From assembly GCA_963726255.1 (NCBI GenBank), contig CAVSBL010000002.1, positions 128,001 to 192,000 on the forward strand: 64,000 bases of DNA, read 5' to 3'. This document shows, piece after piece, positions 4,371 through 8,911 of the stretch. The position numbers were made by a program, and so were the translations under genes. This stretch comes from Candidatus Bathyarchaeota archaeon (GTDB taxonomy: Archaea; Thermoproteota; Bathyarchaeia; 40CM-2-53-6). The notes below the pieces were generated by a model, which did no database searches, was not told the DNA's origin, and saw nothing but the letters and a program-made list of their open reading frames with translations. Positions within the stretch are counted from its first letter, which is position 1; every line of letters starts with the position of its first letter.

Positions 4371-5144
4371 CTAGCGTCCTAGCATGCCGAGTATTCCACC
4401 CAGCACGCCCAGAACGAATCCGGCCACGAAGCCACCGCCGATCAACAGGCTCAAGACCGCAAGTGGAAAGACGACTATGCTGCCTATGGTTCCGTATCCT
4501 AGTAGCATCAGTATTGACCCGATTACCAGTATGAGCCCGATTATCGCTCCTATAGCGAACGTCAAACTCGCCGGGCCAACAGCTGGCAACCAGAAGAAGA
4601 CGCCTGTCCATAGAGTGTAGAAGCTCGGTGAAAGCAAAGCTGCTGCGTTAAGTATCACAAGTATACCTGCGATCATTGCTAGTATGAAGCCCCAGAGCGC
4701 TCTCGGGGGAGCAGGTTGGTAAAGCGGGGGCAATGGTCCCATGAAGGGAGCCGGCGCTGCCATTGGGGGTGGACCGTAGGCGGGTTGCATAGGTGGCATT
4801 TGCATCGATGGCATTTGCTGTTGTGGAGCTGCTACCATCGGTACTACGCCTTGGTAACATTGCGGACAGAGTACAAGGTCCATGTAGGCCTTCGAGTCGT
4901 CGCGGCAGATTGCTCTTCCACAACGGTTGCAAACATAGACGGCGGGTAGGTTAGGGTGATAGTAACATTGGCCAGGTGCTGGAACCCTGATCGGGCTGCC
5001 AGGGCTGACAGGTGTTACAACGCGGACTGAAGGGACTGGTTTGAGCATGGGTCCTGCTGCGCCTGCGAGCGATGAGCCACAGCTTGAGCAGAATGCTGCG
5101 TCGTCGCGGTTGTTGTAGCCGCATGCTGGGCATTTTCTGACCAT
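4371..5144 (-). CDS. Zinc-ribbon + B-box-like finger + Pro-rich linker + C-terminal membrane domain protein
   Basis: CPAC...CSSC, CYYH-x8-CNRC-x4-CRDD-x9-CPQC, PPM/PAP-rich linker, 3-4 hydrophobic Gly-rich helices; AGGAGG upstream. Confidence 0.8.
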   Translation of the reverse strand: MVRKCPACGYNNRDDAAFCSSCGSSLAGAAGPMLKPVPSVRVVTPVSPGSPIRVPAPGQCYYHPNLPAVYVCNRCGRAICRDDSKAYMDLVLCPQCYQGVVPMVAAPQQQMPSMQMPPMQPAYGPPPMAAPAPFMGPLPPLYQPAPPRALWGFILAMIAGILVILNAAALLSPSFYTLWTGVFFWLPAVGPASLTFAIGAIIGLILVIGSILMLLGYGTIGSIVVFPLAVLSLLIGGGFVAGFVLGVLGGILGMLGR

Positions 5145-5560
5145 TTTCCTAATTAGCCTCCTTTAGTTAATTTAACTCGGAAATACGCTGCCGTCGTCAA
5201 CGCACTTAAGCGTTTGCTTAACTATTGGCAAATTGGTGAATGATAAAAGCGCAATAATACCATTTTTTAACGCAAAACGTTGTCACTGGGTCTAGAGACC
5301 CCGTTCTCTTGTTACTGGTATACCTGTAATAGGGGTTTTTCACTAATGACACCATGTAGTTCCGTTTAGAACGCTTGTCACTCAGAAGAATGTCCGATCG
5401 CCTAGTCGCCCAGCGAGTTATCCTTCGGAGACAAAGTTCTCAAGAACTGAGTAAGGTTCTATCAACCTTGTCGTTATTCTACACGACTTCTCTTCAGAAA
5501 TGCCGGGTGTCTTCTCAGCACATATTTAGCGAAGTTGTGTATAGGGCAGCCCGCTCGAAG

Positions 5561-5669
5561 GCCCCGGTGGCTCAGCCTGGTAGAAACAAGACAACGCCAA
5601 AAGCGCCGCCTTGGTAACGAACAGACAAAGAGGCGAAGGTCGTGGGTTCAAATCCCGCCCGGGGCTCCA
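5561..5669 (+). tRNA. tRNA-Thr(GGT) with two introns (22/23 at 5584-5601; 37/38 at 5617-5630)
   Basis: Acceptor GCCCCGG/CCGGGGC, T discriminator + CCA, T-arm GTGGG-TTCAAAT-CCCGC, anticodon loop TT-GGT-A|A; BHB helix TGGT/GCCA restores D-stem GAGC; one C27-A43 mismatch. Confidence 0.85.
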
Positions 5670-6583
5670 ACTTCTGTCAGACCGTCAATGGGCCGGATTC
5701 TGACCCATCTGCGACCTTGTTTTTCATAGAGGCGTCTCCATTCGATAGCGGCTCGTCGTGCGTCATATGACTCTAGTAGGCGGAGGGCGACGGACATCTT
5801 CTCGTGCTTTCTTTCCAGTCCGAACCCGATGACTTCACAAAATCGCTTTTGATCCAGCCGGCTCGAAATGGTGAGATGATAACATCGACGTTTGCTCCAC
5901 ATTGGCTTTCGCTTTCTCTCTTGGAAGATTCTTGAACGTATGCCGAACCGCGTTTCTAACAATCCTTGGATGTACACCAAAAGCCAATGCTTAGTGTTGA
6001 CCAGGACGACATAGAGGGCGAGATTACGAACAATCTCAGAGGTGCTAGATGATCTTGTGTAGACTGAAACTACTGGCGAGCCTTCGGCGTCCGCAAATCC
6101 CCTTATGAACTCGGAGGGATAGACACCTGTAGTTTCCCGAATTCTTTGCCAATCTGAGAGGAATTCAAAAAGCAATCTGCTCCAGAATCTAACTACAAAG
6201 AATCCTTTCTTATCGAAGAAGGGCAGCTTCTTTTTTCCCAAGACAACGCTCGCGCAAGTTGCTACAGTTTCGGCGAATTGCCGATCTCTCACCCTCAATC
6301 GCAATTCATAGTGGAATGCACTGCTTTTGATAAGGGCACCATCGCCGAGAAAGGCGCCCGCAACATAGCTCAATGAAGTAGAAGGACGAAGGTCTGGATT
6401 CGTGCAGCTACCAAAAGGGGAGTTTATTCCACGTAACCAATTGTACACAGTGGGACATGGAAGTCCCAGCAGCTTGGCAATCCGAGTGTGATCCATGCCT
6501 CGCTCTCTGTTTAGTTCTAGCACAACCGGGTATGCAGCCACCCTCTCAGCCAGCGAAATCCGCCTGGACGTTTTGACTGGCAT
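5648..6583 (-). CDS. Free-standing double-motif LAGLIDADG endonuclease with N-terminal HTH
   Basis: Motifs YVAGAFLGDG and FIRGFADAEG; HTH pattern HTRIAKLLGLPCPTVYNWL; late TISS...FCEVIGF block typical of DOD endonucleases. Confidence 0.9.
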   Translation of the reverse strand: MPVKTSRRISLAERVAAYPVVLELNRERGMDHTRIAKLLGLPCPTVYNWLRGINSPFGSCTNPDLRPSTSLSYVAGAFLGDGALIKSSAFHYELRLRVRDRQFAETVATCASVVLGKKKLPFFDKKGFFVVRFWSRLLFEFLSDWQRIRETTGVYPSEFIRGFADAEGSPVVSVYTRSSSTSEIVRNLALYVVLVNTKHWLLVYIQGLLETRFGIRSRIFQERKRKPMWSKRRCYHLTISSRLDQKRFCEVIGFGLERKHEKMSVALRLLESYDARRAAIEWRRLYEKQGRRWVRIRPIDGLTEVGAPGGI

Positions 6584-6669
6584 GGATAAATGTCCAGTAG
6601 CTTTGACAGATGTTGCCGGTCATTAGTATGAGAGCTTAGTGAAAGTGTTCTGAGATAATCGCCTGACTT

Positions 6670-6697
6670 GTGGGTTCAATTCCCGCCCGGGGCTCCA
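6670..6697 (+). repeat. Duplicated 3' end of tRNA-Thr(GGT) (att-like site)
   Basis: 28-bp copy of 5642-5669 with one mismatch in the T-loop. Confidence 0.92.
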
Positions 6698-6967
6698 GCT
6701 AAACTCAAACTCAGCGTGTCCAATTACTCGTCGGTAATGTGCGGGGTTTTCGGTTTTTCTTGTGTTCGCGCGGGCTTATGTCATTCGACACCTAACGACA
6801 TGTACCTTGTCTGAACGGTCGGCTGACCTGCTAGGCGCTAACTGCGCGGGCTCGATGGTATCGGAGTCGTTCCACGCTATCGTAGCAGGATGAGAAGAAT
6901 GAGTGGTTATTTGTGATACGAACTCAAAGAAAAGAGTTCGCGAAGACTTGAAGGCTTTCGTCTGTGC

Positions 6968-7057
6968 TTAGTGCGCTGACTTTGCGTGTGCTTCAAGTTC
7001 TTCCCTTGTTTTGAAGAACATTTTGCAAGCAGGGCAAACATATGTTCCTAGAGACAA
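6968..7057 (-). CDS. 29-aa stand-alone C2H2 zinc finger microprotein (below ORF-track cutoff)
   Basis: MSLGTYVCPACKMFFKTREELEAHAKSAH; GGTGAG before TTG; TTTAATATAT TATA-like box at about 7091-7100. Confidence 0.75.
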   Translation of the reverse strand: MSLGTYVCPACKMFFKTREELEAHAKSAH

Positions 7058-7165
7058 TCAACTCACCAGTTGAGAATTACAGGCGCTTGGATATATTAAA
7101 TGGCTTGAATGCTTCAACCCAAGAAAAGGTAGATCAATGGACCGTGCTAGGCCTAACTTGATTTG

Positions 7166-7573
7166 CTAACGAGGCTTCTTTCGCTTGTCGGTGCCGAAGA
7201 GCTCAATCCAGATTCCGTCCGGGTCCTTTACGTAGGCTAATCTCTCGCGGCCATTAGAGAAGGGTGCAACTGCTCTCTTAGCCCCCTTTGCGATGAGCAT
7301 GGCATAAGTTCGGTCAACATCATCGGCCCAGAACCCAATATGGTCCATCTCCGTTCCTGGCCGGTACCGTTCGTAAAACTTGTTCCGGGACGGATAGTAG
7401 TTGAGTTCCAACCTCTGCGCCGATCCGGGCTTCTTGAGGTGGACGAAGACTCCTCCGTGGTGCATAGTTCCCCTGTGAATTACCTTCATGCCCAAGACTT
7501 TCGTGTAGAACCGAAGCGACCGGTTCAGGTTGCTTACTCGAATGCCAAAGTAAACGAAGCGCATAGGTACCAA
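7166..7573 (-). CDS. VOC/glyoxalase family protein
   Basis: GIRVSNLNRSLRFYTKVLGM, LELNYY, DHIGF, DPDGIWIEL. Confidence 0.9.
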   Translation of the reverse strand: MVPMRFVYFGIRVSNLNRSLRFYTKVLGMKVIHRGTMHHGGVFVHLKKPGSAQRLELNYYPSRNKFYERYRPGTEMDHIGFWADDVDRTYAMLIAKGAKRAVAPFSNGRERLAYVKDPDGIWIELFGTDKRKKPR

Positions 7574-7687
7574 CCATTAATTCACCTACTTGGTTATGTA
7601 AGAAGCTTGCCAGCGTGGGACGGTAAATGACGCGCCGGAGGTTTGAAAAGGCGCAAATGAAAGTTGAGGGGCTGAGGGAAGCTTGGC

Positions 7688-8911
7688 TTGGAAGGTTCTT
7701 TCGCGGAATCAGTTCAGCTGGCTAGTCAACTGCGCGACCTGAGCGATGAGCAGCTGAAAATTCTGGAACGCGTGGATGAAGCGTGCAAGGAGCTTTACCT
7801 TTCCGAGTTCGAACATTACATTGCACACAAGTATAATCCCGACACGCCAGAGACGCTGAAGAAATACAATCTCATGGGCCTCACAGTTTCCCAGGAGTAT
7901 GGAGGAGTCGGAGCCGACTCGCTCACGTGGGCACTGGCGCTTGAACGTTTCGGGCAGATTGGGTTGAGTGTGGTTACGTTCGTTGACGTCCACTGCCTCC
8001 TAGCCTCACTGGCAATTCAGCAATGGGGCAACGAACATCTGAAGAAGGAATACCTCGTTCCGGCAGCTAAGGGGCAGAAGGTTCTAGCTTATGGTTTGAC
8101 AGAGCCCGAAGCAGGAAGCGAACCAACCTCACTCAAGACCAGCTATGAGGAGCGTGATGGCGGCTACGTTCTCAACGGCACCAAATACCTCATCTCGAAC
8201 GGGTCCGTCGCCGACGCGCTCATAATTTTCGCTTACCCGAAAGGCAAGAAGGAAGGCATGTCAGCCTTCGTCGTCGACTCGAAGTCTGAAGGCTTCTCCG
8301 TTGCCATGCACCTCGAAGAGAAAATTGGCCTCTTCACTTCGGACACGGCTATGCTTGAAATGTCCGACGTACGCGTCCCCAAGGATAACTTACTGGGACA
8401 GCCTGGGAAGGGGTTGCATGTTGCCTACTCGGCGCTTTTGAACGGAAGAATTGGGATAGGGTCTGGATGCGTTGGCATCATTGGAGATTGTCTTAACTCG
8501 GTAACGGAACGTGCAAAGTCGCGCGTGCAACACGGGAAGCCCATCGGCAAACACCAATTGATTCAACGCCACATCGCAAACATAGCGATGAACCTCGAGA
8601 TGGCAAGATGGCCAACGTATTATGCTGCTCTCCAGAAGACGAGGCTTGACTCGAACCCTGCCGACCTAGAGCTTAGAAACAAGGTCGACCTTCATTCGGC
8701 CATAGCGAAGCGTGTCGCTTCTCGACTGGCGTACGAAAGCGCCGACTTAGCGGTTCAGGTCTTCGGCGGTTTCGGTTATTCCCTGCTCTCCCCCGTTGCC
8801 AGGCATTTCTGCGATGCTCGGGTGGCAAGAATCTATGAAGGGACGGACGAGATCATGGAGCTCAAGATAGCTTCGTTGATTCTGGGGAAAGGTTTCGAAG
8901 CGTACAGCTGA
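7688..8911 (+). CDS. Acyl-CoA dehydrogenase
   Basis: AYGLTEPEAGS, LNGTKYLISNG, RVQHGKPIGKHQLIQ, QVFGGFG, IYEGTDEI. Confidence 0.95.
   Translation: MEGSFAESVQLASQLRDLSDEQLKILERVDEACKELYLSEFEHYIAHKYNPDTPETLKKYNLMGLTVSQEYGGVGADSLTWALALERFGQIGLSVVTFVDVHCLLASLAIQQWGNEHLKKEYLVPAAKGQKVLAYGLTEPEAGSEPTSLKTSYEERDGGYVLNGTKYLISNGSVADALIIFAYPKGKKEGMSAFVVDSKSEGFSVAMHLEEKIGLFTSDTAMLEMSDVRVPKDNLLGQPGKGLHVAYSALLNGRIGIGSGCVGIIGDCLNSVTERAKSRVQHGKPIGKHQLIQRHIANIAMNLEMARWPTYYAALQKTRLDSNPADLELRNKVDLHSAIAKRVASRLAYESADLAVQVFGGFGYSLLSPVARHFCDARVARIYEGTDEIMELKIASLILGKGFEAYS

Follow-up and report, generated by a model that had tools for sequence, protein, structure and literature searches.

The question raised by this locus is how a lone endonuclease gene came to stand between two copies of the 3′ end of an archaeal tRNA gene. 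The locus lies in a stretch of 64,000 nucleotides from a soil or sediment Candidatus Bathyarchaeota archaeon (assembly GCA_963726255.1, contig CAVSBL010000002.1, positions 128,001 to 192,000; G000:C2:128001-192000 in the numbering used here), referred to below as the window. The genome, G000, comprises 2.42 Mb in 5 contigs and is 98.5% complete. The element is a mobile unit of 1028 bp (5670..6697, no strand assigned), delimited by comparison with the closest relative, in which it is absent, and with contigs of public sequencing runs; due to the repeat ambiguity, it can equally be drawn as 5642-6669. Its best reading, and a probable one, is that of a free-standing homing endonuclease cassette that spreads through the repair of breaks and, rather than residing in an intron or intein, brings along a substitute for the tRNA end.

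The tRNA-Thr(GGU) gene (5561..5669, + strand) is complete, with an encoded CCA at 5667-5669 and two introns. It was matched by Rfam RF00005 at 5561-5666 on the + strand (38.8 bits, gathering threshold 29, two insertions) and read by hand: the acceptor is GCCCCGG/CCGGGGC, the anticodon loop TTGGTAA contains the anticodon GGT (Thr), the T-arm is GTGGG-TTCAAAT-CCCGC, and the inserts lie at approximately 5585-5602 (D-arm) and 5618-5631 (anticodon loop). G021, the closest species-level relative, has this tRNA gene too, with both introns. ARAGORN reported 0 tRNAs over the window because of the introns.

The end of this tRNA gene occurs twice. The proximal repeat, D1 (5642..5672, + strand; repeat search and pattern search), is the copy within the working tRNA and comprises its T-arm, 3′ acceptor strand, and CCA plus 3 nt. 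The distal repeat, D2 (6670..6700, + strand; repeat search and comparison with relatives), is an orphan copy of the tRNA-Thr 3′ end. An earlier note on this DNA, made from its letters, had reported 28-bp repeats of the tRNA-Thr(GGT) 3′ end 1028 bp apart, and both were confirmed: positions 5642-5669 and 6670-6697 are identical at 27/28 positions (29/31 if extended to 5672 and 6700), at a spacing of 1028. With up to three mismatches allowed, the 28-mer was found twice in the window, against 0.00 matches expected from 100 shuffles, and genome-wide it matched these two copies and otherwise only another tRNA, at 3 mismatches.

Only one open reading frame (ORF) longer than 50 aa fills the interval between the repeats. 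This is the endonuclease gene (5648..6583, − strand, 311 aa), free-standing, with a helix-turn-helix (HTH) and a double LAGLIDADG region, as assigned from the ORF list, Pfam, an alignment, AlphaFold (AF2), and Foldseek. Its last 22 nt, stop codon included, overlap D1 in antisense; the stop codon (tca on the + strand, 5648-5650) is within the T-loop of the tRNA, and GAPGGI, encoded by the final six codons, is read antisense across the T-stem and the acceptor strand. By hand reading, the distal copy in the frame of the ORF gives GAPGGN-stop. As the proximal tRNA is complete, the antisense gene lies in neither an intron nor an intein. The intact 311-aa gene, the antisense overlap with GAPGGI and TGA, the distal in-frame stop, and the position outside introns and inteins had all been claimed in the earlier note, and all held on inspection.

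Is the unit present in some strains and absent from others? The flanks of G021 are 94-96% identical to those of the window. After the CCA of its tRNA-Thr, the sequence continues directly with gctaaact..., which is the flank behind D2 in the window, and the allele differs from that of the window by exactly the 1028-bp unit. The more distant genus-mates G015 and G004 are also without it. Contigs (Logan) of four public runs of one study (X1-X4, of which X1 may be the source sample) were compared with both alleles. The entire filled locus is bridged by a contig of X1 (record 6, 5354-7379), and the filled tRNA-to-endonuclease junction was recovered from X2 without a difference (record 13). Another contig of X2 exits the tRNA end at 5669 into G021-type flank (an empty junction), and the empty junction is also present in X4, together with flanks of a G021-like strain and part of the endonuclease gene. 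One habitat therefore harbours both the filled and the empty allele, in strains approximately 5% apart. An empty allele, which the earlier note had proposed to look for, was thus found in G021 and in contigs of the same runs. The endonuclease gene is single-copy in G000; its tRNA-Thr type was found only in G000 among 23 genomes of its genus, and five genomes carry a gene of the tRNA-Thr clade among those searched for the family.

The same comparison bears on the earlier note's alternative, a reduced remnant of a larger integrated island or provirus. This is extremely improbable and was rejected: the general rule that tRNA 3′ duplications mark islands is all that speaks for it, while the empty allele differs by precisely one unit, the ORF is intact and under selection, all resolved repeat spacings in relatives and metagenomes are 0.85-1.26 kb with one gene inside, and no relative has an integrase-bearing island at this site.

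Empty tRNA-Thr flanks were also compared with the tail of the ORF, and relics of it scored above shuffles in only 2/24 empty sites (G065 and G066; at most 1/200 shuffles). There (L198 in G065, L199 in G066), the first ~80 nt after tRNA-Thr keep a translated relic of the C-terminal region of the endonuclease, which suggests that the gene was lost by imprecise deletion. At the empty site of G021, no relic of the ORF tail was found, its score being reached by 98/200 shuffles. With a flank signal in 2/24 empty sites only, the general reading of empty alleles in genus g2 as formerly occupied was rejected.

What does the gene encode? Pfam matched the 311-aa protein to LAGLIDADG_3 (1.9e-13), with a weak match to LAGLIDADG_WhiA; HTH_23 was matched at 8e-4, below the cut-off, and sub-threshold HTH matches were located at residues 21-53. 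LAGLIDADG_3 was matched in 5/5 distant family members tested as well. In the alignment of 16 sequences, motif 1 is LSYVAGAFLGDG, with G80-D81-G82 invariant, and motif 2 is FIRGFADAEG, with D165-A166-E167 in at least 90% of sequences and G168 invariant. From their conservation, the acidic residues D81 and E167 are the putative catalytic acids of the two LAGLIDADG motifs. The AF2 model built from the 16-member alignment (predicted local distance difference test 87.1, predicted template modelling (TM) score 0.79) comprises three helices at the N-terminus, a pseudo-dimer of two alpha-beta-beta-alpha-beta-beta-alpha halves, and a helical tail. Foldseek against PDB gave 139 matches at E ≤ 0.001, and all top matches listed are LAGLIDADG enzymes: the best among those listed is I-Tsp061I (2dch; E 1.1e-8, target-normalised TM 0.69), followed by PI-PfuI, E-DreI, I-OnuI variants, and I-DmoI chains (target-normalised TM 0.70-0.74 for I-DmoI). 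The protein is predicted to be a single-chain, two-motif LAGLIDADG endonuclease with an N-terminal helix-turn-helix.

The ratio of nonsynonymous to synonymous substitutions (dN/dS) was 0.10-0.28 in 13/15 homolog pairs, the remaining 2 pairs being saturated. The ORFs are under purifying selection and the proteins are kept functional; some family copies have stops or are decayed (L005, L020, and L013). This selection, together with the weak LAGLIDADG_WhiA match, the HTH, and a position relative to tRNAs that is stable over deep divergence, is what would be seen with a domesticated HTH-LAGLIDADG regulator or tRNA-locus factor, WhiA-like and vertically inherited, the repeats being by-products of unrelated recombination. 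Such a protein is nevertheless quite unlikely in view of the patchy distribution (12/61 relatives, and the tRNA-Thr type in just one of 23 genus genomes), the 95%-identical relative without the gene, the conservation of both presumed catalytic acidic residues, the decayed copies, and the movement between genera along with tRNA sequence, described below.

Is the association with a tRNA end peculiar to the window? The family was found in 12/61 related genomes, G000 included; genome collections yielded a further 73 loci when scanned, and metagenome collections 80. The counts of free-standing loci exclude L077-L113 of the genome scan, where open frames of 800-900 aa prevail, probably from intein or fusion contexts (DPANN). 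Rfam tRNAs were found beside 9/16 homolog loci (E ≤ 0.01). Direct repeats of the end of the adjacent tRNA flank the gene in 12/13 closely examined loci, 0.85-1.26 kb apart, and in the thirteenth, L007, the orphan copy is decayed. A strict intron-tolerant tRNA finder (7-bp acceptor, T-arm, and D-arm signature) reproduced all Rfam matches and gave 91 matches, compared with 0 in reversed sequence. With this finder, a tRNA was located at most 120 nt from the ORF 3′ end in 54/116 free-standing loci; in 41 of them the ORF runs antisense against the tRNA 3′ end, and in 13 it shares the direction of the tRNA and reads into its 5′ end. The remaining loci comprised 17 with too little flank and 45 without a finder match, and 21 of these 45 hold a tRNA by similarity (19 strongly). 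Altogether, approximately 75 of the 99 evaluable loci, duplicates across collections included, adjoin a tRNA with the 3′ end of the ORF; loci were not de-replicated, and 110 of the 122 protein rows are distinct. Homologs thus adjoin tRNA ends with repeats about 1 kb away, as the earlier note had suggested checking, and its description of a compact integrase-less element with one HTH-LAGLIDADG gene that targets tRNA ends is supported. The family is large and, as far as found, unnamed; in a full-text literature search, no description of LAGLIDADG genes docked on archaeal tRNA ends was found.

In the FastTree phylogeny of 122 rows, the window belongs to a starred clade of 20 rows, and the 19 labelled rows are all antisense on tRNA-Thr (acceptor GCCCCGG). 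The twentieth, L128, has too short a flank for the finder, yet the same tRNA was seen in a side-by-side printout. Metagenomic proteins of the tRNA-Thr clade end with GAPGGI, GAPAEI, or WSPGRD, which are antisense readings of the tRNA-Thr acceptor strand. Other clades, one with 37 rows, one with 18, and some smaller, each keep to a single other tRNA type and orientation, and sister clades duplicate tRNA 5′ ends, not 3′ ends. This matching of clade and target spans Bathyarchaeia, Nitrososphaerales, and Aigarchaeota-like records; kin share labels, and the matching is no statistical proof. Target specificity appears to follow the endonuclease clade.

The tRNAs that stand tail to tail with the 37-row clade are themselves unusual. 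At L053 (3392-3540) and sister loci in Nitrososphaerales, the tRNA genes are ~135-145 nt long, with several inserts and a T-loop that starts with C (GTCGG-CTCAAAT-CCGAC). These multi-intron genes were missed by an ARAGORN-style search and at the Rfam gathering threshold, and were recovered by eye, by the finder, and by similarity.

Where do the two tRNA ends come from? Across loci, D2 is often 70-97% identical to D1, and paired changes keep the T-stem, as in L009 (GAGAG/CTCTC vs GATGG/CCGTC). Due to these compensatory changes, the two ends are taken to be copies from two working alleles, not products of replication slippage. The left edge of D2 in the tRNA-Thr clade varies from tRNA position ~39 to 49. 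In the window and the three other nearest elements (L114, L117, and L118), D1 has one and the same T-arm, GTGGGTTCAAATCCCGC, although their proteins are only 50-59% identical. D2 is readable in the window, L114, and L118 (the L117 contig stops before it), and all three copies differ: over 28 nt, that of the window matches the native tRNA-Thr 3′ end of the relative G017 without a difference, and that of L114 equals the one of the relative G011. This suggests that D1 travels with the endonuclease and that D2 is the displaced native end.

In the clearest case, the genome G028 (genus g3), this observation extends to the whole tRNA. Against genus g2 alleles, its working tRNA-Thr reaches 92-93% identity over 114-116 nt, without any difference in the part that starts at exon 2, includes the anticodon-loop intron, and runs to the 3′ end; against those of g3/g4, identity is only 73-74%. 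The endonuclease of G028 nests among g2 copies in the tree, whereas its D2 is of the g3/g4 type with a T-loop intron. From this combination, it follows that a cassette of tRNA sequence and endonuclease passed from one genus to another and was written over the resident gene. At the DNA level, no synteny of the flanks was detected between G028 and other g3 genomes, and D2 is for this reason labelled native solely by allele type. As for the extent of co-conversion, the whole tRNA is the donor genus's allele in G028, and D1 and D2 of the window differ by 1 nt.

The intron content of D1 and D2 differs in four tRNA-Thr loci: a T-loop intron is present in D2 of L042 (G028), L126, and L128, and in D1 of L120. 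A third insert of ~18-22 nt in the T-loop (GCGGGTTCAAA[...]ACCCCGC) was also observed in tRNA-Thr(GGU) of L203 (G072), L214 (G025), L216 (G031), and L217 (G024); these four genes are without the anticodon-loop intron, and all four sites are without the endonuclease. The idea that a T-loop intron protects the tRNA against invasion was dropped, as orphan D2 copies with such an intron (G028/L042, L126, and L128) suggest that those alleles were invaded too.

How, then, would the unit move? In the homing model, the endonuclease would find its site in the 3′ third of a tRNA-Thr(GGU) gene that is unoccupied, somewhere between the variable loop or T-arm and the acceptor strand, and cut the gene, and the break would be repaired by copying from an occupied allele, where a complete tRNA stands on one side of the endonuclease gene and the orphan D2 on the other. 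Because tRNA sequence lies on both sides of the gene, both broken ends would find homology by pairing with tRNA sequence alone, and the intervening gene would be copied in together with a stretch of donor tRNA. The product would have the order seen here: working tRNA with its 3′ end continuous with the ORF tail (D1), endonuclease gene, and orphan 3′ end (D2). The duplication would be a substitute for splicing, in that the host tRNA stays intact, and the tRNA ends would serve as portable homology arms, independent of host flanks. The distal in-frame stop, which the earlier note had linked to an excised circle, is not needed by the homing model. From the sequence, we infer the cleavage activity, the cut position, and the escape of the occupied allele from cutting. 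The escape might, at a guess, be explained by D2 being without one half-site and D1 carrying tolerated substitutions at T-stem position 50 and in the T-loop; a second guess is an extended site that is read partly by the HTH.

Several points weigh against homing. The weakest is immunity: the typical LAGLIDADG site is ~22 bp, shorter than the 28-31-nt duplication, and if the site lay entirely within the repeat, both copies would retain it, which leaves the resistance of the occupied allele without explanation; D1 and D2 differ by one base here. The empty allele of G021 shares the T-loop AAAT with D1 of the window, not with D2, and in the window either copy may have arrived with the element. Within genus g2, the D1 type is the common one, while the T-loop-intron type of D2 is rare. 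Approximately 24 of the 99 evaluable loci, mostly hot-spring Aigarchaeota-like and DPANN, are without an adjacent tRNA by finder and similarity, and vertical descent among kin can also give the matching of clades and targets. Contigs cannot reveal rare circles or rare empty alleles of the same strain, and no circle junction was seen in those of the four runs. Finally, direct repeats of a tRNA 3′ end are also the product of integrases, and a transient virus or plasmid could supply such an enzyme.

The last point was followed through the genome and the literature. In G000, no match was found to Phage_integrase (PF00589, at E ≤ 0.001), Phage_integr_3 (PF16795), or Resolvase (PF00239), while these profiles matched 14, 3, and 12 of 14 control genomes, respectively. 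The PF00589 search did not return even a XerA-like recombinase from G000, although all 14 control genomes matched. The unit has a direct repeat of the tRNA end at both borders, 28-31 nt long and resembling an att core, and contains no integrase gene. It is like the SSV- and pNOB8-type elements in this direct repeat, and SSV-type integrase genes are described, in the part of the source available, as overlapping the reconstituted tRNA end (PMC3293823), as the ORF of the window does. It differs from them in that neither the element nor the genome has an integrase, and in that the overlapping ORF is a nuclease and stays intact.

A look-alike insertion is described for Caldiarchaeum subterraneum in the available part of Sugahara et al. 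2012 (PMC3293823). There, a fragment (positions 1-27) and a complete tRNA-Thr(GGU) bracket an insert of 1,868 bp with one 813-bp ORF of unrecognised family beside the tRNA; the insertion is polymorphic within one population, brings an extra intron, and was attributed to a pNOB8-type integrase or a transposon (PMC3293823). By description, it is like the window unit in its target, tRNA-Thr(GGU), and in its presence and absence, and unlike it in the 5′-end duplication and in an extra 545-bp repeat. The word LAGLIDADG was not found in the text of PMC3293823 at hand, and the 2012 authors seem to have had a look-alike before them that went unrecognised. One family member was found in the Caldarchaeum metagenome-assembled genome G083, beside tRNA-Gly(GCC). 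The link of the Caldiarchaeum 813-bp ORF 'b' to the family could not be made.

By the same logic, the window unit could be an integrase-less satellite that enters and leaves the tRNA 3′ end through a tyrosine integrase provided in trans by a virus or plasmid, with the endonuclease as cargo. Integrases classically leave direct repeats of a tRNA 3′ end, the repeat here is near-perfect (27/28), in a circle the ORF would be closed in frame by the distal copy, and the look-alike insertion at tRNA-Thr(GGU) was read in this way in the accessible text of Sugahara et al. 2012 (PMC3293823). Such a satellite is still unlikely. The genome has no match to the three recombinase profiles; the one-gene design recurs on many tRNAs, at both 3′ and 5′ ends, where the endonuclease clade, and no integrase, tracks the target; the left boundary of the repeat is variable in the tRNA-Thr clade (~39 to 49); and repeats are often 70-90% identical with compensatory T-stem changes. 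Donor-type sequence in G028 covers the whole tRNA, to the left of any repeat, and the two 'empty' sites with ORF-tail relics point to imprecise loss. No circle junction (go-back joint) was present in the contigs of the four runs, a weak test, as contigs cannot show rare circles. The earlier note had left homing and an integrase in trans side by side; homing is favoured here, and the borrowed integrase is disfavoured because no integrase was matched, the clades track their targets, and the donor sequence of G028 reaches beyond the repeat.

The loci with duplicated 5′ ends raise a different possibility. L008 begins with a 5′ fragment that has the acceptor GGGCCGG; the endonuclease comes next, then tRNA-Val(CAC) in complete form, 7 nt, and finally a 3′ fragment. 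The acceptor strand of this last part, CCGGCCC, pairs with that of the 5′ fragment; L016 is similar. The nested parts are located at 1343-1405 and 2430-2566 in L008, and at 1316-1334, 2287-2406, and 2965-2982 in L016. The orphan 5′ fragment of L008 has CTC where the anticodon of tRNA-Val has CAC, and an extra 19-nt insert after the D-arm. A complete tRNA inserted between fragments of another copy, with one junction lacking clean homology, would suit transposon-like movement other than homing, for example an endonuclease acting as a target-specific insertion enzyme, with capture by end joining. In the part of the paper available, a 'transposable element' was proposed for the Caldiarchaeum insertion, and its ORF has 7 paralogs in one composite genome (PMC3293823). 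Movement of this kind is very unlikely for the window family: the gene is single-copy in G000, elements are found at orthologous tRNA sites and not scattered, and no terminal inverted repeats were found at 4500-8000.

How does the homing cassette compare with known endonucleases? I-DmoI and I-Tsp061I (archaeal rRNA introns) and PI-PfuI (intein) are like the window enzyme in fold, in the two motifs with acidic residues, and in being archaeal. Their genes lie within a bulge-helix-bulge intron or an intein and are spliced out, whereas the gene of the window enzyme is free-standing and runs antisense to the host gene, the protein bears an additional HTH at its N-terminus, and the host gene is kept by duplication of its end. 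Residence in an intron or intein is a habit of the LAGLIDADG family and not a requirement for membership. In hybrid genes of the Allomyces atp6 type, a mobile endonuclease ORF reportedly duplicates or replaces a gene end. Endonuclease-linked N-terminal duplications are described for Tremella fungal mitochondria in the available part of the source (PMC8393795). As far as these descriptions go, the fungal mitochondrial cases are like the window family in that a foreign gene end arrives and becomes functional, with the native end left as an orphan; they are unlike it in their protein-coding hosts, in the ORF often being fused in frame, and in being organellar, against a tRNA host, an antisense ORF, and an archaeal chromosome here.

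SegB of phages T4/T6 is a free-standing GIY-YIG endonuclease encoded in a tRNA cluster, which cuts within tRNA genes at the motif RAWTSGAAC (PMC13096335, available part). The same text describes microhomology between the ORF 3′ end and the tRNA end, recombination-dependent copying, and homologs widely tied to tRNAs (PMC13096335). By our own reading, RAWTSGAAC would correspond to the complement of the T-loop consensus. On this partial description, SegB is like the window unit as a free-standing endonuclease gene beside tRNA genes, and unlike it in its GIY-YIG fold, in residing in phage genomes, and in that no orphan duplicated tRNA end is described.

What does such a cassette add? It is a new variant within the known free-standing homing endonucleases, with the mechanism narrowed to homing. 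Homing endonucleases are thought to persist in essential genes by hiding in introns or inteins; this archaeal chromosomal family would represent a third solution, in which a spare copy of the end of the host gene is carried along. Homology arms made of conserved tRNA sequence would let the element cross genus boundaries, as in G028. The cassette also offers a testable route for the gain, loss, and movement of archaeal tRNA introns and for orphan tRNA halves, where the origin of split and multi-intron tRNA genes is an open question, so far discussed via integrases. The compact, monomeric enzymes, apparently specific for different tRNA genes, constitute a natural panel of new meganuclease specificities.

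More speculatively, such cassettes may be a general engine that rewrites archaeal tRNA genes, so that the many-intron tRNAs of Thermoproteota and the Caldiarchaeum polymorphism would result from an arms race with homing endonucleases that target tRNAs and not with integrases; this is possible, though doubtful at present. If it is true, each homing event would overwrite part or all of the resident tRNA with the donor allele, and bulge-helix-bulge introns would be carried into or out of orthologous tRNA genes of other lineages. G028 would then have lost a T-loop intron and gained an anticodon-loop intron, and L120, with the T-loop intron in the functional copy and none in the orphan, would be another example. 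Each event would also leave an orphan tRNA half as raw material for split and permuted tRNA genes.

The remaining observations concern the surroundings of the gene. Its upstream region (6584..6669, − strand, 86 nt) was assigned as a putative promoter and 5′ untranslated region from a side-by-side comparison of upstream regions. A stretch in it (6622-6647, cactttcactaagctctcatactaat on the gene strand) recurs by eye across the tRNA-Thr clade. The TTTCAC...CTATT stretch, conserved ahead of the start codon in that clade, was rejected as a family-wide motif, being found in 12 loci and in 8 of the reversed control. The only other LAGLIDADG_3 match in G000 is outside the window (C2:1802581-1802862; L225), in an open frame of 1619 aa that is probably an intein in a large protein.

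Downstream of the empty site, G021 has ~755 bp (L022 3551-4306), compared with 146 bp in the window (6705-6851). In this ~755-bp stretch of G021, an 84-bp segment (window 6713-6795) is inverted, and a 79-aa ORF resembling a small membrane protein is present. A contig of run X2 contains the matching opposite-strand joint, from 6763 to 6851.

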